Positions 1,954-39,085 of a DNA stretch of 64,000 nucleotides are shown piece after piece. The notes beneath the pieces are model-generated. The model did not search any database, was not told the DNA's origin, and saw only the letters and a list, made by a program, of their open reading frames with translations. Positions within the stretch are counted from its first letter, which is position 1; each line of letters starts with the position of its first letter. The stretch comes from Escherichia phage YJin-2024a, in sequence record PP534475.1; one strand, written 5' to 3'. The position numbers and the translations under genes were made by a program.

Positions 1954-2466
1954 TTAGAAATTTAGCTTCATAGCAAGAAAATTTTTCAAGTTTTCGGTAG
2001 ACATCTCATCCACATCTATAGGAGAAACAAAGCCGTTTAATTTTCTAGCAAATTTTTCACCTGCAGGGTCATTATCCCCGACAGCTACCAATTTAAAAGG
2101 TAGTAATTTCAGTTGCTTTAATAACGCAACTGCCTTAAATACAGATTCAGCAATCAATACTACTTTTTCATCTCCATTGAGAGTTTCTAGTCCCCATACA
2201 CACTGGGTAGTAGAATGAGTAAAGTATTTAGCTTCAAAGGGGCACTTACCATGACCTTTTGGAGCAGAAGGATTATAAGTTTGATAGCCCCTCAACATCC
2301 CAGAGAAGTCATATAACGGGACTGTTAGCCATCCTTCCGGACTTAACCAGCAATGATATTTATCTGTATCAAATCCTCTAGATAAGAGGTGCTGTGTTAG
2401 CTCATCAACATTCATATTTGGTTCCTCTCTCAAATTTATAGATATATTATACAGAGAATTTAGCAT
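1954..2466 (-). CDS. hypothetical protein with Toprim-like motifs
   Basis: VVLIAESVFKA ... VAVGDNDPAGEKFARKL resembles the Toprim E and DxD signature. Confidence 0.4.
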   Translation of the reverse strand: MLNSLYNISINLREEPNMNVDELTQHLLSRGFDTDKYHCWLSPEGWLTVPLYDFSGMLRGYQTYNPSAPKGHGKCPFEAKYFTHSTTQCVWGLETLNGDEKVVLIAESVFKAVALLKQLKLLPFKLVAVGDNDPAGEKFARKLNGFVSPIDVDEMSTENLKNFLAMKLNF

Positions 2467-2590
2467 TCAAGCAATCAAATTTTTTAACTTTTTAGAGAAA
2501 AATCATAGGGCACTTAAGGATAGCAGATAAGTGGTGAGGACCAAAATTTGTGACCCCACTAAAAATCCGGGGGTAATTTTTAAAGACCCC

Positions 2591-2619
2591 TTGACATTTT
2601 CGCTGGGGTAGTGTAAAGT
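2591..2619 (+). promoter_or_regulatory. sigma70-type promoter TTGACA-17-TAAAGT
   Basis: Consensus -35, 17-nt spacer, near-consensus -10; AGGAGG RBS 8 nt before ATG at 2682. Confidence 0.6.
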
Positions 2620-2681
2620 ATATGTTATGGATGAGTGATCAAAGAGACACACATTTTCTATATACTAGGAGGTGTCAAAAA

Positions 2682-3674
2682 ATGACAGAAGAAGTAGCTA
2701 AGAGTCCTGAGACCGTCGCTAGCGTTGCAGCAGAACTGCACCGTCACGAGGAATCAGATAAGAAAAAGTGGGAGAAGGTCAGAGCCTACGAAGAGAAACA
2801 TCGTGAACACGATGAAGATGATGAAGAAGATGACGATGATGAGTATTGTCATAAATATGGAAAACGTAAAATGCAAGAACCAGTAAACGTATTCACTAGT
2901 GGCTTCCCTGGCCTAATGGGTGGTTACCCAGCAAACGCAGGTGCTTTCGGTGGTGAAGGTATGGGACTATTCGGAGCTATCCTAATCGGTGCTCTATTAA
3001 CAGGCGGATTCGGTGGTTTCGGTGGATTCGGTGGACGTGGTGTAGTTGGTGAAGGTACCGCAGTTGATGCAGTACTTCAGAACCAAGATACCGCTAGTAT
3101 TCTAGCAGCTATTAACACTACTCGTACAGAGGCTAACCAGGGTACTGGAGCTGTTTTAAGCGCAGTTAATAATGGTTTTAGCCAGACATCCCAAAACCAG
3201 AGCCGTGATACTCAGTCTGTACTAACTACGATCTATGGTACAGGTGCTAATCTGTCTAATCAGATCTGCCAGGAAACTCGCAACGTTATTCAGGGTCAGT
3301 TCGATCTTTCTCGCCAGATTGATCAAGCTTTCGCAGCTAATCAGATAGCTCGTGCACAAGATAAGTTTGATTCTGCACAGATCGCTTTCCAGCAGACTTT
3401 ACAAACTAATAACCAGTTTGCCGCTGTTCAGGCTCAGATGTGTGCTAACCAGAACTCTCTGGAACGTCAGATCGCTGAATGTTGCTGTGAACTTCAGACT
3501 GCGATTGCTGGTGTAACTACTGCGCGTATCCAGGATGAGTTAGACGCGTGTCGTCTACGTGAAGCAATCGCTGCGGGTAGCGGTGCTAACGGTCAGGTAA
3601 TTAATCAAATCGCTTTAAGTCTTGGTGCTATCACTCAGACTCTGGCTGGTCTGCAGGCTAAACTGCCGGCTTAA
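2682..3674 (+). CDS. membrane protein: acidic N-terminus, glycine-zipper segment, Gln/Asn/Thr-rich Cys-containing C-terminus
   Basis: Start moved to ATG 2682 because of the RBS; GGFGGFGGFGG hydrophobic Gly-zipper; DEDDEEDDDDE acidic tract; no recognisable family. Confidence 0.6.
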   Translation: MTEEVAKSPETVASVAAELHRHEESDKKKWEKVRAYEEKHREHDEDDEEDDDDEYCHKYGKRKMQEPVNVFTSGFPGLMGGYPANAGAFGGEGMGLFGAILIGALLTGGFGGFGGFGGRGVVGEGTAVDAVLQNQDTASILAAINTTRTEANQGTGAVLSAVNNGFSQTSQNQSRDTQSVLTTIYGTGANLSNQICQETRNVIQGQFDLSRQIDQAFAANQIARAQDKFDSAQIAFQQTLQTNNQFAAVQAQMCANQNSLERQIAECCCELQTAIAGVTTARIQDELDACRLREAIAAGSGANGQVINQIALSLGAITQTLAGLQAKLPA

Positions 3675-3695
3675 TATTAAGGGGAGGAGCCCATT

Positions 3696-4112
3696 ATGAG
3701 TAAATATGGTTTTGTAAATAACGGACTTAATCAAAGTATGGGCTCCCAGCAGCCCGTTCCGGGTCTGGATAACCCCTACTTACAACAGTTGCAACAGCGT
3801 TTAGCAGAAGCGCAACAGATGCAGCAACAACTCCAGCAAAACCCTGGAAGTGTAAGTCCTATGCAAATGATGCAGCAAATGAGCGGGCAGTCGCAAATGC
3901 CTCAACAAATGCAGCAACAGATGCCGCAGCAGCAAGTTCAGCAACAAACCCAACAACCGCAGGTTTCTGCGGAGGGACAGGCAGTACTAGCCCTTTTCGA
4001 AGACTTCGCAAAGACAGAGGATGGGAAACAGCTTGTATCACTTATGGGTAAGTTTAATAGCTTCTGCCAAAGCCAAGTTGCAAAAGCTCAAAATGGTGGT
4101 AATAACTCCTAA
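3696..4112 (+). CDS. Gln-rich low-complexity protein
   Basis: 138 aa with PQQMQQQMPQQQVQQQTQQPQ tract; GGAGG RBS upstream. Confidence 0.55.
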   Translation: MSKYGFVNNGLNQSMGSQQPVPGLDNPYLQQLQQRLAEAQQMQQQLQQNPGSVSPMQMMQQMSGQSQMPQQMQQQMPQQQVQQQTQQPQVSAEGQAVLALFEDFAKTEDGKQLVSLMGKFNSFCQSQVAKAQNGGNNS

Positions 4113-4121
4113 GGAGAAATT

Positions 4122-4316
4122 ATGTGTTGCAGAAAATCTGTTTCGTGCTGCCCAATGCCTGTAGCACGTTGTTGCTCTCCAGCAATGTTTACGCAAATAC
4201 CGGCGTTCAATCCGTTTGCCTTTAAGCCTACTCTTATCCTGCCCCCTAGAGTAGATTTTCAGTCAAGATTGGCCTCCCGTATGGGTGGTTGCTGTACACC
4301 GAGAGTGTGGTTCTAA
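4122..4316 (+). CDS. small Cys-rich hypothetical protein
   Basis: 64 aa with several CC pairs; last ORF before the terminator; may not be coding. Confidence 0.3.
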   Translation: MCCRKSVSCCPMPVARCCSPAMFTQIPAFNPFAFKPTLILPPRVDFQSRLASRMGGCCTPRVWF

Positions 4317-4329
4317 ACCAAAAACAAAA

Positions 4330-4362
4330 GCCCCTGCCGAAAGGTAAGGGGCTTTTTCTTTT
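4330..4362 (+). terminator. intrinsic terminator
   Basis: GCCCCT...AGGGGC hairpin with inner GAAA loop followed by TTTTTCTTTT. Confidence 0.7.
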
Positions 4363-4365
4363 GCC

Positions 4366-4408
4366 TTAAATACAGAAAAGCCCTGCGCTCTCCAGGAAAC
4401 GCAGGGCT
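4366..4408 (-). terminator. intrinsic terminator for the convergent SPFH gene
   Basis: 8-bp GC-rich hairpin GCCCTGCG/CGCAGGGC followed on the minus strand by TTTTCTGTATTT. Confidence 0.65.
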
Positions 4409-4432
4409 TACTTCAGATGTTACATGCGGGTA

Positions 4433-5380
4433 TTATTTATTACGCATATCCATAATCATTTGGCCATCGTAACCAGTTCCCACTACTGTTTGCGGTACAC
4501 CACCTTGGTATTTCTGAGCACGAATCATTTCGACTTCCAGTTGTTTCCAACGAATCATCTCAGGAGTAATGGTACGTTGCAGTGCGGCGTTAGCTTCAGC
4601 TTCTTTCTTAGCTGCATACAGTTTAGCATCTGCATCACGTTCGTTAGCAATAGCTTGGTTATTACGAGCTTCGCGATCTGCTTCTGCTTGTTTAACCTTC
4701 TGCTGTGCTTCTTGTTCAACACGAGCCAACTCAGCTTTTGCAGCATTAACTTGCTCTTCACGAACTTTGGTATTCTGTACCTGTTCCATGATTACTGGAG
4801 GCAGAGTAATATCCTGAAGGAATACCTGCTTAACTGTGTAACCATATGGGCGTGCATACTCTTCAACTTCTTGTTGAATTGCAGTTTGCAATTGAGCCTG
4901 AATTTTAGCATCAAACAAATCTTGTGCTTTAGGTACAGACTTACCAAACTCACGAATAGTAGACAGTAATTTTTCAGTTACATACTTGTCTAGCGCCTGA
5001 TCCTGAGTACCTGCGTTAATGCGGTTAATCGGTGCCTTAGAACCATCAAACTGCAACATAACAGTCAGGTCAACAGTGGATTTAAACTTATCCTGACTAG
5101 GAACCTGAAGTTTATCTAATTTTAGAGCAATATCTTTAGTACTAAAAGTATCGAAAGAAGCAAAAGGATTTACAATATGAAAGCCGGGTAATACTGGGCT
5201 AGGGTCAACTTTACCCAGGAAAGTCTGGGTTTTAACAGTACCGTCTTGAACAACAGTATAGGAGTTAAGGGCCAGAACTAAACCTACCAAACCAACTGCA
5301 GCACCAATACCCCAACGTTTGATATTACGCATCAATTTTTGCTCATAAGTCAGTTCTTTAGTGTTTTTAGTAGCAAACAT
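4433..5380 (-). CDS. SPFH/band-7 (prohibitin/HflKC-like) membrane protein
   Basis: N-terminal TM helix, SPFH-like core, long Ala/Glu/Gln-rich coiled coil (AKAELARVEQEAQQKVKQAEADREARNNQ). Confidence 0.65.
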   Translation of the reverse strand: MFATKNTKELTYEQKLMRNIKRWGIGAAVGLVGLVLALNSYTVVQDGTVKTQTFLGKVDPSPVLPGFHIVNPFASFDTFSTKDIALKLDKLQVPSQDKFKSTVDLTVMLQFDGSKAPINRINAGTQDQALDKYVTEKLLSTIREFGKSVPKAQDLFDAKIQAQLQTAIQQEVEEYARPYGYTVKQVFLQDITLPPVIMEQVQNTKVREEQVNAAKAELARVEQEAQQKVKQAEADREARNNQAIANERDADAKLYAAKKEAEANAALQRTITPEMIRWKQLEVEMIRAQKYQGGVPQTVVGTGYDGQMIMDMRNK

Positions 5381-5489: not shown

Positions 5490-6286
5490 TTTAAGTATTT
5501 TTAAGAACTCTCGTAAAAACTCTTAAAAATACAGACGATACCGGGAGAGTCATAAGTCTCACTCATTAAGTATTTCAAGACAAAATACAGTAACGTCTAT
5601 TATTTTCCAGTTTAAGTCAGGGTGACTTAGTGGTTATGTCCTGCGGTATATTGAGGACTCGGTTAGGCTTGGGGTCATGACTTCCCACCTTTTGCTGCTA
5701 CTCAACAGGAGTTATCGCGAATTACCTGTGCTATTGTGCACCATTAGTGACATCTCTCATGTCAGCATTTCCCACTTTGTGGATAGCTTGAAAAACTACT
5801 CCGATATGGAGAAAGAACTTCACTATCCTAGAATACCTTCTAAAGTTCTTCTTTAGCCTGGACATAGTTAAATCGTAATAAAACTATTCAGCAGACTGGT
5901 TGGTTAGTCTGGAACCAACTACCGCGTGGTTTAGGCAGTGCGCAACTAACCTCGGAAGCTTTTACATTAAAAGCACCAGTTATCCAGTTCTTACCGACCG
6001 TAGGACTCGAACCTACATCTTCCACCAGTTACGGCTTGATAATACCAATTATACTAGGACGGCAGTGTTACTACATAAGTGATTTCCACACCCCACTATT
6101 TATAAATTAGAGAAGAGTTTAGGGGAGAGGTTTCAGACGCCTCATTTTACACGTTCTAGCCACTAACCGGGATTGCCGCCCCCTGTGTACTAGTTTTACA
6201 ACTAACCCACCGACTCTATTCAATGCGCTCCGGTTGGGATTCTGCACTCAGCGTAATCGGCTCGCTGTTCTCTAATTTATGAATAT

Positions 6287-30565: not shown

Positions 30566-30862
30566 ATGACCAAAGCTGAAATTATCGCACAATGTGAAAA
30601 ATTTGGTGAGTTTTATCTTCATTACGAGAAACTTCGTCAGAAAGGAACTACGTACCTTCAGGGTACGATGGAATTTGATCCAGCCCAAGATAAATATCTG
30701 GCTGAGCGTATTAAACGTGAACGTATTCGTAAAGCGAAAGATGATGAGATCCTTGTCTTCTCTCGTACTAATGATAGCTTCCGTTTTATTCCTGTCGAGA
30801 AAGTCCGTCGTGTGACTAGCCTCCAATCAGAGTTAGATCGTGCTTCTCCAGTAGGCCGATAA
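30566..30862 (+). CDS. hypothetical protein
   Basis: 98-aa ORF followed by a terminator. Confidence 0.45.
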   Translation: MTKAEIIAQCEKFGEFYLHYEKLRQKGTTYLQGTMEFDPAQDKYLAERIKRERIRKAKDDEILVFSRTNDSFRFIPVEKVRRVTSLQSELDRASPVGR

Positions 30863-30872
30863 GAAACCAATT

Positions 30873-30894
30873 AGCCCCTATATGGGGCTTTTTG
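30873..30894 (+). terminator. intrinsic terminator
   Basis: AGCCCC-TATAT-GGGGCT followed by TTTTTG. Confidence 0.65.
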
Positions 30895-30912
30895 TGTATT
30901 TGGGATATGTAA

Positions 30913-31221
30913 ATGAGCGAACAGGTAAATCAAAACTATGAAGGACACGTTGATGACCAGTCCATCATACTTTGGGAGAAGGAGGGAGAACAAGTAAGAT
31001 TAACAGTATCTGAATTTCGTGGGAATCTATACATGGGTATTCGTTACTGGCTTCTTGATATTAATGATGAATGGTTTCCAACGAAATCTGGCTTCTCTTT
31101 TCCTTACACCCTAGAAACAACATCACAGCTTTTCTATGCGTTTACACAGATTCTTAGCGAATCTGAGGTTTTACATGAAGTACAGAAACGAGCTGAAGAA
31201 CTCAAAGCCAAGAATGCCTAG
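30913..31221 (+). CDS. PC4/YdbC-like ssDNA-binding protein
   Basis: RLTVSEFRGNLYMGIRYW...WFPTKSGFSFP matches the PC4 fold motif. Confidence 0.55.
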   Translation: MSEQVNQNYEGHVDDQSIILWEKEGEQVRLTVSEFRGNLYMGIRYWLLDINDEWFPTKSGFSFPYTLETTSQLFYAFTQILSESEVLHEVQKRAEELKAKNA

Positions 31222-31239
31222 TTCTTGGCTTTTTCTTTA
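31207..31239 (+). terminator. intrinsic terminator
   Basis: GCCAAGAA/TTCTTGGC hairpin containing the stop codon, then TTTTTCTTTAT. Confidence 0.65.
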
Positions 31240-31248
31240 TAAATGTAT

Positions 31249-31277
31249 TTGCTTTCAACTCAGTTTTGTTATATAAT
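31249..31277 (+). promoter_or_regulatory. T5-type early promoter TTGCTT-17-TATAAT
   Basis: Consensus hexamers upstream of the ligase N-terminal gene. Confidence 0.65.
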
Positions 31278-31308
31278 ATTTATATAAATTGATGAGAGAT
31301 ATAAATAA

Positions 31309-32280
31309 ATGACTAATGTAAAAGAATTTATTAAACGCTGTCAAGAAGCATATTATCAAGGCATGTCTTTAATCTCTGATGAGGAATATGATCGTCTTAT
31401 TAAAAGATTCCCACTAGAGGAAGAGATCGGGCCTAAGGGCGATATTCCACATCTATATCGTATGTATTCTTTACAGAAAGTTTATTATAATCGTGGAGAT
31501 AAGCCCCCATTTAACCCATTAGGTCAGGTAGAAACTGATAAGTTAGATGGTTGTGCGATTTCTCTGTTATATATTAATGGCGAATTTGTTCAAGCACTAA
31601 CTCGTGGTAATGGCATTCTAGGGAATGATGTCACAAGCAACGTAAGACTGCTGAACATCCCTAAAAAGATTTCCCAAAAAGTACCTACTCAAATCACTGG
31701 TGAAGTTCTAATTACAAAAGAAGTAGAAAATAAACGTAACTTTGCCTCTGGTGCTATTAACCTCAAAGATAGTGATGATTTCGTACAACGTATCGGAGAA
31801 GGTGGTTTAATCTTCGTCGCATATGGTATCCAGTGTTCTGCTGAATCTGTAGGTATTACAGAAACGTATTTAAAAGATATGCTTTGGCTAGAGAATGAGA
31901 ACTTCTTAACAGTTGTTAATGTGCGTTCCTTCTTTAAATGGATTCCGACGGATGGTAAAGTTGTTCGTATTAATGACAACAACAAATTCTTCCGAGAAGG
32001 CTGGACTAATAAATTCCCTCGTGGAGCATTCGCTATTAAAGAGGATGAAGAAGGCGAGATTACAACTCTTACTAAAGTTGAATGGCAGGTAGGGGCTTCT
32101 GGTAAAGTAACTCCAGTTGGTTATTTTGAACCGGTAATTATTGATGATGCTACAATTGTTAAAGCGACTCTTAATAACGTTGATTATATTAACTCTCTTG
32201 ATCTAGAGATCGGTTGCCAGATTCGAGTGATTCGTGCTGGTGGTGTAATCCCGTGCATAGTAGAGCGAGTATACGATTAA
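31309..32280 (+). CDS. NAD-dependent DNA ligase, N-terminal adenylation/OB part
   Basis: KxDG active-site motif ETDKLDGCAI; ends where the LigA zinc-finger region would start. Confidence 0.75.
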   Translation: MTNVKEFIKRCQEAYYQGMSLISDEEYDRLIKRFPLEEEIGPKGDIPHLYRMYSLQKVYYNRGDKPPFNPLGQVETDKLDGCAISLLYINGEFVQALTRGNGILGNDVTSNVRLLNIPKKISQKVPTQITGEVLITKEVENKRNFASGAINLKDSDDFVQRIGEGGLIFVAYGIQCSAESVGITETYLKDMLWLENENFLTVVNVRSFFKWIPTDGKVVRINDNNKFFREGWTNKFPRGAFAIKEDEEGEITTLTKVEWQVGASGKVTPVGYFEPVIIDDATIVKATLNNVDYINSLDLEIGCQIRVIRAGGVIPCIVERVYD

Positions 32281-32330
32281 TACATAACCCTTTGCTACCC
32301 ATCTACCATATCGGAATTATAAAGTGGTTA

Positions 32331-32359
32331 TTGACATTTTCGCCGCTTAGGTATATACT
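32331..32359 (+). promoter_or_regulatory. promoter TTGACA-17-TATACT inside the ligase gap
   Basis: Shares the 13-mer TTGACATTTTCGC with the promoter at 2591; only an 8-codon mini-ORF follows. Confidence 0.5.
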
Positions 32360-32423
32360 ATTATCATTCAGTTGAGGGATAGAAAGTTATGGCGAGGGTA
32401 AGCAAAGTTAGTTAAAATTGTGG

Positions 32424-32452
32424 TTGCTAAATGCTTAAATACTTGCTATAAT
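32424..32452 (+). promoter_or_regulatory. T5-type early promoter TTGCTA-17-TATAAT
   Basis: Followed by TATAAATTGATAAGGAAG leader and ATG 32483. Confidence 0.65.
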
Positions 32453-32482
32453 ATTTATATAAATTGATAAGGAAGAAATTTG

Positions 32483-33253
32483 ATGAAAATCGAAATTCCA
32501 ACACAATGTCCCTCTTGTGGTTCTAAGCTAGATCTTGTCAACGGACAATTATTCTGTCGGAATAAGTCCAACTGTCCAGCGCAATCAAGTAAGTTAATTG
32601 AGAACTTCTGTACAAAAATGAAGTTAAAGGGCTTTGGCCCAAAAACTATTGAGAAGCTGGAGCTGACGAAGATTTCAGAACTATTTTACCTAACCGAAGA
32701 AGATTTGGTTAGAGCCGTGGGTAGCAAGGTTGCCGCTAAGTTAATTAGCGAATTAAATACTAAAGTTCGCGGAGACATTGACTTTGGTTCAGTTCTCGGT
32801 TCTTTAGGAATCCCTCTAATTGGAGAGGTTGCAGCAAAGAAATTATCCCAAAATTGCACTAGCTTCCACGATGTGAAGGCTGACGGCAAGGCTGGAGAAA
32901 ATTATAAAGCCTGGCTAAATTCCCCACAAGGCAAGGATGTTATCGAACTGCCGTGGAAATTCTCAACTGGTGCTAAAGCTAAAACTGTCGTTACAGATGA
33001 ATTAGTTGCCCAGTCAAACGGAATCGCGGTATGTATTACCGGATCTTTGCAAGATTTTGCAAATAGAACGGATGCAACAAACTATTTAGAAAGTCTAGGG
33101 TATACGGTTAAGAAATCCGTTACTAAAGACGTCAAATACCTAATCTGTGAGGATGAATCAAAACGTTCTTCCTCATCTTATAAGAAAGCCGAAACGAATG
33201 GGATAGAAATCCTGTCGATTAAAGAACTATTGGAGAAAAATAATAATGTCTAA
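32483..33253 (+). CDS. NAD-dependent DNA ligase, C-terminal Zn-finger/HhH/BRCT part
   Basis: CPSCGSKLDLVNGQLFCRNKSNCPAQ is the LigA zinc-finger; start taken at ATG 32483. Confidence 0.75.
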   Translation: MKIEIPTQCPSCGSKLDLVNGQLFCRNKSNCPAQSSKLIENFCTKMKLKGFGPKTIEKLELTKISELFYLTEEDLVRAVGSKVAAKLISELNTKVRGDIDFGSVLGSLGIPLIGEVAAKKLSQNCTSFHDVKADGKAGENYKAWLNSPQGKDVIELPWKFSTGAKAKTVVTDELVAQSNGIAVCITGSLQDFANRTDATNYLESLGYTVKKSVTKDVKYLICEDESKRSSSSYKKAETNGIEILSIKELLEKNNNV

Positions 33254-34013
33254 ACTGAACTGGAACGTAGAAGGTGTAACCGAGTCTCTGAAAGCAAAAG
33301 CCACTGCTCTGGGTGTTGCTGTAATCTCTCAAGAACAAGTAGCTGCTATTGCTGCTGAACTGGCTACTGAAACTGGCAAAGATGTTACTGCTCGCTCTGT
33401 TGGCTCTAAACTGCGTAAAGAAGGTTTTGAAGTACAGAAAGCTAACGAAGTACAGAAATCCCCGTGGACTCCTGAGCAGGAAGCTGAACTGGTTGATTTC
33501 CTGAACGCTCATGCTGGTCAGTATACCTATGCTGAAATCGCTGCTGCTGTAGCTGGTGGTCAGTTCGGCGCTAAGCAGGTACAGGGTAAGATTCTGAGCC
33601 TGGAAATGACCGCTTCTGTTAAGCCAACTGAAAAAGCTGCTGCTGTTCGTTCCTTCACTCCGGATGAAGAAACTGATTTTGTTAATCAGGTTGTTGCTGG
33701 TGCTACTATTGAAGCTATCGCTGCTCACTTCGGTCGTAATATCAAGCAGATCCGTGGTAAAGCTCTGAGCCTGCTTCGTGAAGGTCGTATCGCTGCTATG
33801 CCGGTACAGGAAACTTCAAGTGCTAAAACTCGTGAAGATCTGTTAGAAGGTCTGGATCTGGTTAACATGACTGTTGCTGAGATCGCTGAGAAAACTGGTA
33901 AGTCTGAGCGCGGTGTTAAATCTATGCTGTCTCGTCGTGGTCTGGTTGCTAAGGACTATGATGGTGCCGCTAAGCGTGCTAAACTGGATGCAAAAGCTGC
34001 GGCTGCTGAATAA
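33246..34013 (+). CDS. abundant DNA-binding protein with three HTH-like repeats
   Basis: Three similar segments (YAEIAAAV..AKQVQGKILSLE / IEAIAAHFGRNIKQIRGKALSL / VAEIAEKTGKSERGVKSML); codon usage of a highly expressed gene. Confidence 0.45.
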   Translation: MSKLNWNVEGVTESLKAKATALGVAVISQEQVAAIAAELATETGKDVTARSVGSKLRKEGFEVQKANEVQKSPWTPEQEAELVDFLNAHAGQYTYAEIAAAVAGGQFGAKQVQGKILSLEMTASVKPTEKAAAVRSFTPDEETDFVNQVVAGATIEAIAAHFGRNIKQIRGKALSLLREGRIAAMPVQETSSAKTREDLLEGLDLVNMTVAEIAEKTGKSERGVKSMLSRRGLVAKDYDGAAKRAKLDAKAAAAE

Positions 34014-34030
34014 TCTGGTAAATTAAACCT

Positions 34031-34065
34031 AAGGGGAGGGGGCTATGCTCCTTCCCCTTTTTGCA
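34031..34065 (+). terminator. intrinsic terminator
   Basis: AAGGGGAGGGG...CTCCTTCCCCTT hairpin followed by TTTTGCATTT. Confidence 0.7.
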
Positions 34066-34095
34066 TTTAGAAGGCACGAAAGCGTGCAAAGGAGA

Positions 34096-35568
34096 ATGAC
34101 CTTGTTTAACGTGCAAGCTGTAGTGTTGAAGATGCTTCTAGCTTCTGAACAGAAGCAAATAGCATTGGAAACATTCTCAAAACTGCATAAAGATCATTTT
34201 AATGACGCTTTCTCCTCAATTTACCAAGCCGTCCAGAATTATTATAAAAAATATAACACAATGCCGTCCATTGACGCACTTATGCTTGAAGCTAATAGGA
34301 ACGCCCGCCTTTCTCAAGCTCTAGTCGTCTTAGCTAACACTCAAATTCCAGAAGTGAGCATGGAACAGGCACTTGAAGTCCTAGAAGCCGAATATACACA
34401 GGATTTATTCCTGAAACTTCTAGAAACAGACGTGCTTCAAGATTTAACAATGCTGGATCAGGGAGAAATTCTCAACCGAGTTGCCTCCCTTCACTTAAAA
34501 TTAGAAGAGAAAGTAACGAATACTGGAAAAGTATTCAACGCAGATAACATGCGTATTTTCCAGAGAGAAGAAGATACCAAACTGAACTTAATCGCTCTTG
34601 GTATTTGTAATGAGTTCGACGCTCAAATTGGTTTAGCTCGCACAGAAACGTTACTGCTTGGTGGTTGGCGTGGTACTGGTAAATCCATTATCTGTTCAAA
34701 CATACAGGTTCAGCAATATTTGAATGGAGATATTGCTCCATACTTCTCAATTGAGATGAAAGAACATGAAGTATTTAGACGTAATCTAGCCATGTTAGCA
34801 GGTGTATCAGCACTAGCAATGCGTAATAATACTCTAGAAGGTGCAGCTCTGTTGAGATTAGCCAGAACTAGAGCTAGAATGTTTAATGGTGGTGAAGAGC
34901 TTTTCGATAGCTTTGTTAAACAGTACACAATGGCTAAGATGAGTGATTTCTACGATATGGAGAGTAAGCTAATAGAAGGGTATGAGCTACATACTCCTAT
35001 GATTATTGTTTATGACCCTGAGCTGTCTATTACAACAGTTGACGTAGAACTAAATAAATTAGTTGCTAGATATGGTGATAAAGTTACAGTAGCTTTACTG
35101 GACTATATTAACCAAACCCGACTTCCAGACTCTAAAACCATTGATATGTATGACTGGAAAGAACAGATGGTTGTTAGCTCGTCTTTCAAATCTATCTGCC
35201 AGAAACATAACGTGGCTGGTGTAGCTCCTTACCAGATAGATCAAGATGGTAGAACACGTATGTCAAAGGGGATTCTTGATTCCGCTGACATGGCTGCTAA
35301 TCTTAATGCTGCAAAAGCTGATAATGGTCAAGGTGCTATTATGTTTGACTTCGTTAAGACTCGTTCTTCTGATAGCGTGAAGTTTATGCCTAAAATGAAC
35401 TGGGAAACTCTGCGAATGGATAACACTACCAACCTAGCAATGGAAGATATATCTCAAATGGAAGCTGAGTTCGTTATCCCTATTGAGAAGGATAAGCCGG
35501 CTCAACCTAAACGTGCTAAGAAAGACAAAGCTGAAAATTCAACAGGTGAACAGGCCAGCGATATATGA
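34096..35568 (+). CDS. RecA-fold replicative helicase (DnaB-like)
   Basis: Walker A GGWRGTGKS, Walker B VALLDY; start moved to MTLFNV (RBS AAGGAG) because the track start lies inside the terminator. Confidence 0.65.
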   Translation: MTLFNVQAVVLKMLLASEQKQIALETFSKLHKDHFNDAFSSIYQAVQNYYKKYNTMPSIDALMLEANRNARLSQALVVLANTQIPEVSMEQALEVLEAEYTQDLFLKLLETDVLQDLTMLDQGEILNRVASLHLKLEEKVTNTGKVFNADNMRIFQREEDTKLNLIALGICNEFDAQIGLARTETLLLGGWRGTGKSIICSNIQVQQYLNGDIAPYFSIEMKEHEVFRRNLAMLAGVSALAMRNNTLEGAALLRLARTRARMFNGGEELFDSFVKQYTMAKMSDFYDMESKLIEGYELHTPMIIVYDPELSITTVDVELNKLVARYGDKVTVALLDYINQTRLPDSKTIDMYDWKEQMVVSSSFKSICQKHNVAGVAPYQIDQDGRTRMSKGILDSADMAANLNAAKADNGQGAIMFDFVKTRSSDSVKFMPKMNWETLRMDNTTNLAMEDISQMEAEFVIPIEKDKPAQPKRAKKDKAENSTGEQASDI

Positions 35569-36455
35569 GTAGAATAACAGAACTACTTGATCTGAAAGGC
35601 ATTGAATATAAAGACACAGGTGGGGACATCCTCATCTGTTGTCTCAATCCAGATCATGACGATAAACACCCAAGTTTGCGTATTGATCCTGAAACAGGTA
35701 TTATGCACTGCTTGAGTTGTGGCTTCGGTAAAGGTATACCGAGCATTTACCATTATTTTAATGAGACTCAGTACCGACAGTCCCCAAGACTATCGCAGGT
35801 ACGTAAAAAGATTTCAGAGATTAGGAATGGATCTACGAATCTTGCAATTCCTGAATCTGCTTACCTTTTCGAAGGTGATTTCCGAGGTATAAGTTCTAAG
35901 ACCTTGAAGAAATATTTTGCTTTCCAACACCAAGCAGATTGGGAAGGCAGAATTGTATTCCCAATCACAGATGCTGTTGGACGCAATATCCTATTTTTGG
36001 GTCGTTCTATAAACAGTTCTGCCCCTCCTAAATACTTAGTAAAACCAAAACAAGTTTCACCACCGATTTTTCCTGTACGATATAATACTCCAGTTCTTAT
36101 TCTAGTTGAAGGTATCTTTGATATGCTGAACCTAGAGGATAATGGTATAGACTATGCTTCTTGCTGCTTTGGTACACATCAGTTCACTTCAGATAACATT
36201 GCAGATAAGTTCAGTCCTTATATTATTGCTGGTGTAAAAGTTGTTGTTATCTTACTAGATAATGATGCTTCTGGTAATAAAGCTGCACAAGCATTGGCTA
36301 AGCTAATTCGTACAAAAACGCGTTTAATACCTGTAGTTGCTAACTTTCTCCTGCCTGAAGGCAAAGATCCAGGTGATTTAAACAAAGATGAAATTGATAT
36401 GTTAGCAAAACGTATTGAAATTTTAATTGCTGAATCGCTTAAAGATTTGGTATAA
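35565..36455 (+). CDS. DnaG-type DNA primase
   Basis: CHC2 zinc finger CCLNPDHDDKHPSLRIDPETGIMHCLSCG plus Toprim segment VLILVEG...LLDNDASG. Confidence 0.8.
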   Translation: MSRITELLDLKGIEYKDTGGDILICCLNPDHDDKHPSLRIDPETGIMHCLSCGFGKGIPSIYHYFNETQYRQSPRLSQVRKKISEIRNGSTNLAIPESAYLFEGDFRGISSKTLKKYFAFQHQADWEGRIVFPITDAVGRNILFLGRSINSSAPPKYLVKPKQVSPPIFPVRYNTPVLILVEGIFDMLNLEDNGIDYASCCFGTHQFTSDNIADKFSPYIIAGVKVVVILLDNDASGNKAAQALAKLIRTKTRLIPVVANFLLPEGKDPGDLNKDEIDMLAKRIEILIAESLKDLV

Positions 36456-36517
36456 TATATTGGTAAGTTAGAGAAGAAACACTGAAGTTATACTTACTTA
36501 CCAAGAGGAGATTAAAT

Positions 36518-39085
36518 TTGAAAATCGCAGTAGTTGATAAAGCTCTAAATAACACTCGTTACGATAAACATTTCCAGCTATACGGCGAGGAAGTTGATGT
36601 ATTCCATATGTGTAACGAGAAGTTATCTGGTCGTTTGCTTAAAAAGCACATTACTATTGGAACACCAGAAAACCCATTTGATCCGAATGATTACGATTTT
36701 GTTATACTAGTAGGTGCTGAACCTTTTCTGTATTTCGCAGGTAAGAAAGGCATTGGTGACTATACTGGTAAACGTGTAGAGTATAATGGATATGCTAACT
36801 GGATTGCGAGTATTAGCCCAGCCCAGTTACACTTTAAGCCTGAAATGAAACCAGTTTTCGATGCAACAGTAGAGAATATCCACGATATTATCAATGGTCG
36901 TGAGAAGATTGCAAAAGCTGGTGATTACCGTCCCATTACTGACCCTGACGAGGCGGAAGAATATATCAAGATGGTGTATAATATGGTTATCGGACCTGTC
37001 GCATTCGACTCCGAAACCTCAGCACTATACTGTCGAGATGGTTATCTGCTTGGTGTTTCTATATCTCACCAAGAATATCAGGGTGTATATATCGATTCTG
37101 ATTGTCTCACAGAGGTTGCGGTATATTATCTCCAGAAAATTCTAGATAGTGAAAACCACACTATTGTTTTTCACAACTTGAAGTTTGATATGCACTTTTA
37201 TAAGTACCATCTGGGACTTACTTTTGATAAAGCACATAAAGAACGCAGGCTCCATGATACAATGTTGCAGCATTATGTTCTAGATGAGCGTCGTGGTACT
37301 CATGGCTTGAAATCTCTAGCAATGAAGTATACCGATATGGGTGACTATGACTTTGAACTAGATAAGTTCAAGGAGGATTACTGCAAAGCATATAAAATCA
37401 AGAAAGAAGATTTCACATATGATTTAATTCCGTTTGATATTATGTGGCCTTACGCTGCAAAAGATACCGATGCCACTATACGTTTGCACAACTTCTTCTT
37501 ACCAAAAATTGAGAAGAATGAAAAACTTTGCAGTCTGTATTATGATGTTCTAATGCCTGGTTGTGTATTTCTCCAGCGTGTTGAGGATCGTGGTGTACCA
37601 ATTTCTATTGATCGCTTGAAAGAAGCTCAGTATCAGTTAACTCATAATCTGAATAAAGCCCGTGAGAAGCTGTATACTTATCCAGAAGTCGTTCAGCTAG
37701 AGAAAGATCAGAACGAAGCGTTTAACCCAAACTCTGTTAAACAACTCCGTGTTCTTCTGTTTGATTATGTTGGCTTAACTCCAACAGGTAAATTGACGGA
37801 TACTGGAGCAGACTCTACAGATGCAGAAGCTCTGAACGAATTGTCTACGCAGCATCCAATTGCTAAGACCCTACTAGAGATTCGTAAGCTGACCAAGCTG
37901 ATCTCTACTTACGTTGAGAAGATTCTTCTAAGCATTGATGCTGATGGTTGCATTCGTACTGGCTTCCATGAGCATATGACTACTTCTGGTCGCCTGAGTT
38001 CTTCTGGTAAACTGAACCTGCAGCAGCTACCTCGTGATGAATCTATTATCAAGGGTTGTGTAGTAGCTCCTCCAGGGTATCGTGTAATCGCATGGGACTT
38101 AACAACTGCGGAAGTTTATTATGCTGCTGTTCTATCTGGTGATAGAAATATGCAACAAGTATTTATCAACATGAGAAATGAACCAGATAAATACCCTGAC
38201 TTCCACTCTAACATCGCACACATGGTATTTAAGCTCCAATGCGAACCTCGTGATGTTAAAAAGTTATTCCCAGCCCTGCGTCAAGCAGCTAAAGCAATCA
38301 CCTTTGGTATTTTGTATGGTTCTGGCCCGGCTAAAGTAGCTCATTCTGTTAATGAGGCTCTTTTGGAACAAGCTGCTAAGACAGGCGAACCGTTTGTAGA
38401 GTGTACTGTTGCAGATGCTAAAGAGTACATTGAAACTTACTTCGGTCAGTTCCCACAGCTTAAGCGTTGGATTGATAAGTGCCACGACCAGATCAAGAAC
38501 CATGGGTTTATCTATAGTCACTTTGGTCGTAAACGTCGTCTGCATAATATCCACTCCGAAGACCGTGGTGTTCAGGGTGAAGAAATTCGTTCTGGATTTA
38601 ACGCAATCATTCAGTCTGCTTCTTCTGATAGTCTCCTTTTAGGGGCTGTAGACGCAGATAATGAGATCATTTCTCTTGGCCTAGAACAAGAGATGAAGAT
38701 TGTTATGCTGGTTCACGACTCCGTGGTTGCTATTGTTCGTGAGGATTTGATCGACCAGTACAATGAAATCCTGATTCGTAATATCCAGAAAGACCGTGGT
38801 ATCAGTATTCCTGGCTGTCCGATTGGTATTGATTCAGATTCTGAAGCTGGAGGTTCTCGTGACTATTCTTGTGGTAAGATGAAGAAACAGCACCCATCAA
38901 TCGCTTGTATTGATGATGATGAATATACTCGTTATGTCAAGGGTGTATTACTTGACGCAGAGTTCGAGTATAAGAAACTAGCTGCAATGGATAAAGAGCA
39001 TCCAGATCATAGCAAATACAAGGATGATAAGTTTATTGCTATATGTAAAGATTTGGATAACGTGAGAAGGATTCTCGGTGCTTGA
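36518..39085 (+). CDS. family A DNA polymerase with 3'-5' exonuclease domain
   Basis: Exo motif FDSETSALY; polymerase motifs KAITFGILYGSG and LVHDS; TTG start with AAGAGGAG RBS; 855 aa. Confidence 0.9.
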   Translation: MKIAVVDKALNNTRYDKHFQLYGEEVDVFHMCNEKLSGRLLKKHITIGTPENPFDPNDYDFVILVGAEPFLYFAGKKGIGDYTGKRVEYNGYANWIASISPAQLHFKPEMKPVFDATVENIHDIINGREKIAKAGDYRPITDPDEAEEYIKMVYNMVIGPVAFDSETSALYCRDGYLLGVSISHQEYQGVYIDSDCLTEVAVYYLQKILDSENHTIVFHNLKFDMHFYKYHLGLTFDKAHKERRLHDTMLQHYVLDERRGTHGLKSLAMKYTDMGDYDFELDKFKEDYCKAYKIKKEDFTYDLIPFDIMWPYAAKDTDATIRLHNFFLPKIEKNEKLCSLYYDVLMPGCVFLQRVEDRGVPISIDRLKEAQYQLTHNLNKAREKLYTYPEVVQLEKDQNEAFNPNSVKQLRVLLFDYVGLTPTGKLTDTGADSTDAEALNELSTQHPIAKTLLEIRKLTKLISTYVEKILLSIDADGCIRTGFHEHMTTSGRLSSSGKLNLQQLPRDESIIKGCVVAPPGYRVIAWDLTTAEVYYAAVLSGDRNMQQVFINMRNEPDKYPDFHSNIAHMVFKLQCEPRDVKKLFPALRQAAKAITFGILYGSGPAKVAHSVNEALLEQAAKTGEPFVECTVADAKEYIETYFGQFPQLKRWIDKCHDQIKNHGFIYSHFGRKRRLHNIHSEDRGVQGEEIRSGFNAIIQSASSDSLLLGAVDADNEIISLGLEQEMKIVMLVHDSVVAIVREDLIDQYNEILIRNIQKDRGISIPGCPIGIDSDSEAGGSRDYSCGKMKKQHPSIACIDDDEYTRYVKGVLLDAEFEYKKLAAMDKEHPDHSKYKDDKFIAICKDLDNVRRILGA

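Follow-up and report, generated by a model that had tools for sequence, protein, structure and literature searches.

A 64,000-nucleotide stretch of Escherichia phage YJin-2024a (PP534475.1; hereafter the window) was analysed for a plus-strand cassette at 2591–4356, which corresponds to the phage T5 genes T5.077, T5.078 and T5.079 (NC_005859), all three annotated there as 'hypothetical protein'. The three products are referred to as P1, P2 and P3. The cassette was firmly shown to be an autonomous, mobile, dispensable and selected three-gene unit of the 'moron' type at the edge of an anti-defence island. The proteins are proposed to form a membrane-bound complex that acts in phage–host or phage–phage conflict beside the anti-retron gene Rad, and a probability of roughly 35% was assigned to this reading. 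A conflict function was ranked first because the unit is accessory and portable and because of where it lies. The 2.2 kb around the cassette matched the genomes of over 400 T5-like phages (Tequintavirus and Epseptimavirus), with a best identity of 98.4%.

The initial annotation of the window had described three plus-strand open reading frames (ORFs) between a promoter and a terminator of their own, in a region where all neighbours lie on the minus strand. All of these elements were found, indicating a self-contained transcription unit as predicted from the sequence, and the genes and tRNA genes to the left and right were all on the minus strand. The putative sigma-70-type early promoter (2591–2619, plus; TTGACA-17-TAAAGT, 10/12 consensus matches) is the equivalent of T5 promoter P12, which is annotated at the same site in NC_005859. 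Identical hexamers were present upstream of a distant homologue of only about 40% identity in the contig L016. The promoter scan gave 2 sites against 7.1 expected in shuffles, that is, no enrichment; hence, the promoter call was supported by conservation and by the T5 annotation rather than by the scan count. The ORFs of P1 (2682–3674, plus, 330 aa), P2 (3696–4112, plus, 138 aa) and P3 (4122–4316, plus, 64 aa) are preceded by AGGAGG 9 nt upstream of the ATG, a GGAGG Shine–Dalgarno sequence and AAGGAG 6 nt upstream, respectively. The P1 frame opens at the ATG at 2622, and the ATG at 2682 (MTEEV...), 20 codons further on, was preferred as the start because a Shine–Dalgarno sequence precedes it and the Epseptimavirus homologues begin at MTEE.

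The intrinsic terminator of the cassette (4326–4356, plus) has a 13-bp stem with one bulge, a GAAA loop and a U-run. Its folding free energy was −20 kcal/mol (z −3.94), and none of 200 shuffles was equally stable. The T5 annotation describes it as an 'efficient bidirectional rho-independent terminator', and a hairpin directly after P3 was also found in Pseudomonas phage KPP23 and in L016, the latter retaining a double terminator. A second hairpin (4378–4409, minus) is a boundary element outside the cassette and was assigned by scan and fold as the minus-strand terminator of the adjacent SPFH/Band-7 gene. The end at 4408 given by the initial annotation takes in this second terminator and had to be moved back to 4356. 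The second hairpin lies where major single-strand nick 3 (32.6%) is annotated in T5 (AY587007, NC_005859), contains the GCGC consensus and is kept in Baret and S114, which have no cassette; a single element may double as terminator and nick site.

The presence and absence of the cassette were compared across T5-like genomes, as the initial annotation had proposed. A 3.4-kb query including both flanking genes (1954–5380) matched 439 records, 215 of which covered at least 80% of the query; among the matches listed, the records of lower coverage matched the flanks only. According to tblastn, P1, P2 and P3 occurred in 222, 222 and 223 phage records, respectively. The sampled cassette-less records had empty sites with sharp blastn breakpoints, and the segment present or absent extended over 2526–4348 against Epseptimavirus S114 and over 2459–4369 against Tequintavirus Baret. 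About half of the T5-like genomes are without exactly this 1.8–1.9 kb. The guanine-plus-cytosine (GC) content averaged 39.0% over the window and was 46.1% in the cassette (z 3.3), which is the highest-GC 1.8-kb stretch in the 64 kb; Ala/Gly/Gln-rich coding accounts for part of the excess. As read from the sequence, the cassette has all the marks of a moron, namely, its own promoter, its own terminator, presence or absence at a fixed site and a deviating base composition. The ratio of nonsynonymous to synonymous substitution rates (dN/dS) was 0.15 for P1 and 0.10–0.17 for P2, showing that both are under purifying selection. The dS of P3 (0.07–0.24) was much below that of P1 (0.49–0.81) in the same phage pairs, and recent recombination or a constraint at the nucleotide level, for example, RNA structure near the terminator, are both possible explanations.

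The cassette was shown to be dispensable in laboratory hosts. T5.077, T5.078 and T5.079 were all scored as 'Not Fit' and of 'unknown function' when T5 was screened by the knock-down method CRISPRi-ART (PMC11879866, supplementary files 8 and 16), and T5.076 was listed as anti-defence in the same dataset (PMC11879866). The viable phage T5Mos carries a deletion of 30661–38625 that ends inside T5.077 (PMC11464382). Moreover, BF23 is without ORF071–075, which its authors interpreted as the loss of an anti-defence locus (PMC10644984).

The P1–P2–P3 trio was also found in KPP23, in one N4-like contig that has a virion RNA polymerase, and in L016, L039 and L041, which are distant Demerecviridae-like contigs with the same gene order. 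KPP23 (AB910392.1, 62.8 kb) is unrelated to T5; its ORF074 is P1-like (61% identity over the C-terminal half), ORF073 is P2-like and the equivalent of P3 is a 60-residue ORF in an unannotated frame (5936–6118, MCCNQPVPQCC...RCC..DCC). The N4-like contig encodes a P1 of 300 aa, a P2 of 130 aa and an MCC-starting ORF of 49 residues. In the four metagenomic lineages among these, the trio stands as a plus-strand island amid minus-strand genes; in KPP23, the genes downstream of the trio are on its strand. These comparisons of sequence and gene order show the trio to be mobile, horizontally and as a package, among unrelated virulent phages. Its movement among T5-like, N4-like and KPP23-like phages indicates that a selectable, host-dependent function is very likely.

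P1 matched phrog_8119 (E 3e-204), a family of unknown function. Along the chain, a helix (residues 12–44) is followed by an acidic low-complexity run, an EPVNVF motif, a glycine-rich anchor at about 90–118 and a helical Q/N/A-rich domain of about 200 residues. The acidic run is variable and is His-rich in the Epseptimavirus forms (HHYHHHHHEH), and the EPVNVF motif, just before the hydrophobic segment, is conserved. C254 and C267–C269 (ECCCE; C-x12-CCC) were invariant in the alignment of trio-type proteins. With 24 and then 83 sequences, the overall predicted local distance difference test score (pLDDT) of the AlphaFold2 models was 49–54.5; the N-terminal helix was the sole confident region (pLDDT 84–93), and the C-terminal 200 residues or so were modelled as one long helix with low confidence. 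In the Fourier analysis of P1, heptad periodicity was not significant; the peaks at 3.45–3.7 residues were reached by 344 of 500 shuffles.

The acidic N-terminus, the GGFGGFGGFGG stretch and the ECCCE cluster named in the initial annotation are all present, and its term 'glycine zipper' was overstated. The segment is a (GGF)n run rather than GxxxGxxxG: the (GGF)3 part gives only GxxxG pairs, the core spacing is GxxxxG and the Pfam scan returned no Gly-zipper family at E ≤ 1. It is the single hydrophobic segment of P1 (19-residue Kyte–Doolittle maximum 1.72, residues about 95–114) and is compatible with the membrane anchor that had been proposed; we infer that P1 is probably anchored by it in the inner membrane. 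The periplasmic alternative of the same proposal was not borne out to the same degree, with the flanking charges leaving the orientation open and P2 and P3 having no signal-like segment. One Arg just past the hydrophobic core is conserved, and the charges flanking the core are too few to decide the orientation.

P2 (T5.078; phrog_7894) had been described as a prion-like poly-Gln protein. Its richness in Gln was confirmed (38 of 138 residues), but an alignment of 8 lineages placed the Gln-rich stretch in a variable linker, and it is the two ends that are conserved. These are an N-terminal helix (LQQLQxRLxEAQxxQ) and a C-terminal domain of about 40 residues with an invariant Cys in KFxxFCQ; the P/Q/M-rich linker between them is about 10–55 residues long, and other lineages have P/A-rich sequence in place of the Q-rich stretch. 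Hence, P2 is not a conserved prion domain. There were 125 relatives at E ≤ 0.01, and the best 120 of the 125 were all of P2 size (101–146 aa) and unnamed save for a spurious 'kinase' label. The full label, 'cAMP-dependent protein kinase catalytic subunit (kapc)', stands in AY587007 and many derived records, having been propagated from record to record; it was rejected as an artefact, as the Pfam scan of P2 gave no significant family or kinase-domain match.

P3 (T5.079) begins with Met-Cys-Cys (MCCRKSVSCC) and holds 8 cysteines in 64 residues, in four Cys-Cys pairs. It is basic (8 K+R against 1 D+E), rich in Pro, Phe and Ser, and has an FNPF motif. The 223 homologues found by tblastn were 87–100% identical and mostly unannotated. 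ORFs starting with MCC or MCGCGC follow P2 in KPP23, L016, L017, L039 and L041, with MCGCGC in L041. Of the 524 ORFs in the window that begin with ATG and have 45 codons or more, only 1 has an MCC start, and the recurrence of this start after P2 speaks for P3 as a real gene. The number and spacing of the cysteines differ among lineages. No lipobox, signal peptide or hydrophobic h-region was found in the P3 sequence (19-residue Kyte–Doolittle maximum 0.85), and neither P2 nor P3 has an N-terminal hydrophobic signal-like segment on reading. The GenBank ORF072 of KPP23 (5938–6132, GTG start) is in the wrong frame and overlaps the conserved MCC-starting T5.079 homologue. P3 resembles the Cys/Gly-rich tails in which Firmicutes-type P1 relatives end, which was noted as a lead only.

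The initial annotation had recognised neither the P1 nor the P2 family, and this was upheld: Pfam, NCBIfam, PADLOC and PDB sequences gave no characterised family for P1, P2 or P3, and PHROGs gave only families of unknown function. The same was true of profiles built from P1, for which the family libraries returned nothing significant beyond such PHROGs. The clear likeness to a characterised structural or lysis protein that would have refuted the initial annotation was not seen in these libraries. The lack of a PADLOC match for the trio is uninformative on an anti-defence role. An HMMER search with P1 against 1.84 billion representatives retrieved only 23 clusters, none annotated, and tblastn searches with the N4-like P1 and a CCC-less paralogue retrieved no characterised homologue from a cultured phage. 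A profile search with P1 gave 604 matches with no Pfam domain and no name. The Cys-Cys-Cys (CCC) cluster was present in 24 of the 24 T5-type members examined and in 88 of the 99 others. P1 shares with these proteins a glycine-rich hydrophobic segment near the N-terminus, a helical domain and the xECCCEx motif; on this profile and motif evidence, it belongs to a large unnamed virus superfamily with members in crAss-like phages and on giant-virus and archaeal-virus contigs.

Most proteins of the superfamily came from large gut-phage contigs, and the contigs examined were crAss-like, having a Crass_capsid gene. In the crAss-type relatives, the glycine-rich segment comes almost at the start, QECCCENRL is present and the C-terminal tail is rich in Gly, Tyr and Trp; their GenBank labels are 'spike protein/glycoprotein' or 'outer capsid protein/viral fiber'. 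These 'spike' and 'fiber' genes, phrog_8119, phrog_16490 and phrog_9288 are true homologues of P1, sharing the glycine-rich segment and the helical (Q)xxECCCE domain. Unlike P1, these homologues lack both an N-terminal extension rich in acidic residues or His and the P2 and P3 partners, and many carry the Gly/Tyr/Trp-rich tail instead. Other branches have GCGCGC tails, and some are without the anchor, including a protein on a contig of a giant-virus metagenome-assembled genome (MAG). Still others have lost CCC while retaining a His-rich N-terminus and a P2-like partner. In the contig L043, the CCC-less paralogue has its P2-like partner and no MCC-type ORF downstream (one locus examined). Furthermore, gp38 of Iodobacter phage phiPLPE ('putative tail-fiber protein') is a distant relative.

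Several observations were made on these relatives. The anchor-less proteins of L035 (the giant-virus MAG contig, 3316–4662) and L036 (3888–5228) have about 446–448 residues with repeated 'ERNG/DRNG' helical units and end in QIAECCC(S/E) followed by R..D.L, and the CCC-helix module therefore extends beyond phages. The conserved block after the crAss-type relative in L019, L020 and L004 encodes a beta-rich protein of about 108 residues, a helical 'MFQSLR...' protein of about 170 residues (phrog_28898), an Arg-rich charged protein of about 65 residues and DUF7841. The P1 N-terminus resembles small charged proteins beside the crAss-type relatives, which is a lead only. Some genes of L004, L019 and L020 contain in-frame stops under table 11, suggesting possible stop-codon recoding.

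The setting of the cassette is well documented. Azam et al. described an Anti-Defense Island of about 8 kb in phage ΦSP15 with tRNA-Tyr, small ORFs and Rad, which is ORF75 and equals T5.076 (10.1101/2023.03.15.532788). Rad is an anti-retron protein, tRNA-Tyr and ORF71–73 are reported to neutralise retrons Ec78 and Ec83, and an anti-AVAST2 activity is reported to lie unmapped within the island (10.1101/2023.03.15.532788). The left 2.5 kb of the window holds homologues of tRNA-Tyr and ORF71–73 and is therefore part of this documented island. The cassette adjoins these homologues and that of Rad (1954–2466, minus), so that it borders a recognised island; in ΦSP15, Rad is followed by ORF76 (P1), ORF77 (P2) and an unannotated P3. 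Like morons and the cargo of the T5 and ΦSP15 island (Azam et al., 2023), the cassette combines its own promoter and terminator, presence or absence at a fixed site, foreign composition and dispensability in the laboratory, and it lies directly beside proven anti-retron genes. Unlike that cargo, its proteins include one with a predicted membrane anchor and resemble no characterised anti-defence protein.

The proposed mechanism is as follows. Host RNA polymerase would read the cassette from the sigma-70 promoter through the three ORFs to the private terminator. P1 would be anchored in the membrane and display its long helical domain with the C-x12-CCC cluster. P2 may act as a cytoplasmic adaptor whose two conserved ends are joined by a flexible P/Q tether, and P3 may dock on the cysteine cluster of P1 via a shared metal site or thiol/disulfide links. 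P1 and P3 are perhaps coupled through these cysteines, as suggested by the invariance of CCC and C254 in P1 and by the lack of a downstream MCC-type ORF in L043. The three proteins would then form one membrane-bound complex, which could counteract a host defence or an abortive-infection effector at the membrane, or else keep competing phages out. The benefit would be felt only on particular hosts, in conflict rather than in core replication.

Several points weigh against this proposal. No experiment ties T5.077–079 to a defence or exclusion phenotype; a literature search for the three genes by name found no paper, and searches for T5 RNA sequencing and T5st0 deletion maps found nothing. The anti-defence proteins characterised to date are mostly soluble, and exclusion is usually the work of one protein in the known cases, so that a three-protein membrane complex would be atypical for both. 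The complex is deduced from synteny alone. The flanks of the P1 hydrophobic core are almost uncharged in the positive-inside analysis, the AlphaFold2 confidence for this segment is low, and its insertion and topology are predicted only. The dN/dS of P3 (0.09–0.82) is ambiguous because substitutions are few. If P1 lay on the island fragment F9 of Azam et al., it gave no rescue from retrons Ec67, Ec78 or Ec83. Lastly, P1 relatives appear to be near-universal and syntenic in crAss-like phages, which fits a housekeeping role better than conflict.

Five other explanations were ranked below conflict, in the order of scaffold, periplasmic exclusion, metal handling, lysis and virion fibre. The housekeeping argument leads to the scaffold, in which the P1 family tethers replication, recombination or assembly to the membrane and the trio is an optional enhancer of burst or timing. 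The size of the P1 superfamily (more than 600 matches), its conserved position beside phrog_28898 and DUF7841 in crAss-like genomes, a relative beside SSB, RecT and resolvase genes in Bacteroides phage C3_41T2LP, and relatives without a transmembrane segment on the giant-virus MAG contig would all suit such a role. It was nevertheless considered unlikely for the cassette: roughly half of the T5-like phages do without it, its knock-down had no measurable fitness cost, P2 and P3 occur nowhere but in the mobile trio, and a private promoter and terminator with foreign GC are typical of acquired cargo. The next explanation, rated still lower, is superinfection exclusion or envelope protection, in which a periplasmic, disulfide-stapled P1 domain blocks DNA entry or lysis from without by other phages; the initial annotation had offered superinfection exclusion, injection blocking and membrane remodelling as speculation, and they are still speculative. 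The basic cluster KYGKRK upstream of the P1 core would, on our reading, favour an N-in/C-out orientation, and four conserved cysteines per P1 chain suit periplasmic disulfides; early expression, as predicted from the promoter, and the SPFH membrane protein next door agree with it. The trio also resembles the exclusion proteins Imm and Sp of T4 and Llp of T5 in being accessory and non-essential and, as predicted, early and envelope-associated. Those are, however, single proteins, whereas the trio is strictly co-inherited and two of its members, P2 and P3, are without a signal-like segment. Across the P1 family, the flank charges lean weakly to C-in, and P1 homologues without a transmembrane segment exist. 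The trio is unlike any characterised family in Pfam, NCBIfam and PADLOC, and T5 already encodes Llp for exclusion.

The cysteines and histidines raise the question of metal handling, by which N-termini rich in His or in acidic residues, along with the CCC cluster and the P3 cysteine pairs, would provide ligands for Zn, Cu or Ni, and copies of the glycine-rich segment would oligomerise into an ion-conducting or metal-sequestering membrane assembly. His-rich runs recur independently in several branches (HHYHHHHHEH in Epseptimavirus; HKHKHQHKH and HHHHHH in paralogues), the P1 cluster is invariant and P3 carries its 8 cysteines in 64 residues. Against this, the N-terminal low-complexity run is not conserved and is missing from the N4-like and crAss-type proteins, the cysteines of P3 are inconstant in number and spacing between lineages, and the library searches gave no likeness to any metal-binding family, which made this account improbable. 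A lysis role as holin, antiholin or spanin was judged marginally more improbable. The likeness to the lambda Rz/Rz1 pair is superficial, with P1 having an N-proximal anchor and a long helical Cys-bearing domain and P3 being tiny, Pro-rich and Cys-containing; a P1 relative also lies between the head and tail modules of two myophages, a frequent site of lysis genes and morons. Unlike Rz1, P3 has no signal peptide or lipobox, and the trio has a third component in P2. The cassette is optional, has an early-type promoter, lies beside Rad and the SPFH gene rather than an endolysin, and could be knocked down without a fitness defect. T5-like phages encode a holin, endolysins and bona fide Rz-like spanins elsewhere in the genome (PMC11664485). 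A spanin or holin identity was rejected on the lack of a P3 lipobox, the location and these published lysis genes. The lowest probability of all was given to a virion fibre or ejection protein, as the labels on the distant relatives ('spike', 'viral fiber' and 'putative tail-fiber protein' in crAss-like phages and phiPLPE) would have it. Weak, non-significant PDB sequence matches to trimeric coiled-coil spikes and a weakly BclA_C-like protein adjoining a Firmicutes-type P1 relative point in the same direction. The labels themselves rest on coiled-coil resemblance only, with no significant match to a structural-protein family; in the phiPLPE record, gp38 is without the note 'confirmed by MS' (mass spectrometry) that gp34 and gp35 have. 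Moreover, the cassette has an early-type promoter, and particles are formed without it in half of the T5-like phages.

The flanking genes were also examined. The left neighbour is the Rad homologue noted above, a Toprim protein of 170 residues, and its homologues carry the label 'DNA primase' in many genomes. The right neighbour is the T5.080 homologue, an SPFH/Band-7 membrane protein (4433–5380, minus; Pfam E 2.5e-17), and tRNA genes lie on both sides of the cassette. The tRNA-Tyr gene and three small ORFs corresponding to ORF71–73 of ΦSP15 are at 3–89, 222–497, 588–794 and 787–954, all minus. Among the tRNA genes, roughly at the position of T5 hegA, an ORF of 133 residues (1342–1743, minus) has an HNH-endonuclease-like motif (EHKDDDKSNN...N) and is probably a homing endonuclease adding to the local mosaicism. 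Some T5-like records list small ORFs across the promoter region (2503–2652 of the window, minus) and the P3/terminator region (5886–6056 of the record L001); these show no conservation in their own right and resemble artefacts of gene calling.

The T5 record already lists the genes, promoter and terminator, and the genes have been knocked down in published work. According to the literature and libraries searched, the portable trio, the small MCC gene and its mis-annotation, the modularity of P2 and the link of P1 to a CCC-motif superfamily are new. T5 is a model phage whose tRNA region came to be seen as an anti-defence island only recently, and the cassette is the largest uncharacterised block at the edge of that island; its small size suits it to screens by deletion or complementation. 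P3 exemplifies a conserved small gene that is overlooked or mis-framed in many phage annotations, and P1 gives entry to a large unnamed superfamily that is widespread in crAss-like gut phages under misleading 'spike/fibre' labels. The trio is tentatively viewed as a new membrane-anchored system joined by the CCC cluster of P1 and the MCC and Cys-pair chemistry of P3, which would be a portable counter-defence or exclusion device, with the CCC-helix as an unnamed virus-wide domain. If this is true, the CCC-helix domain would be common to phages of Proteobacteria, Bacteroidota and Firmicutes, contigs attributed to archaeal viruses and giant-virus MAGs.

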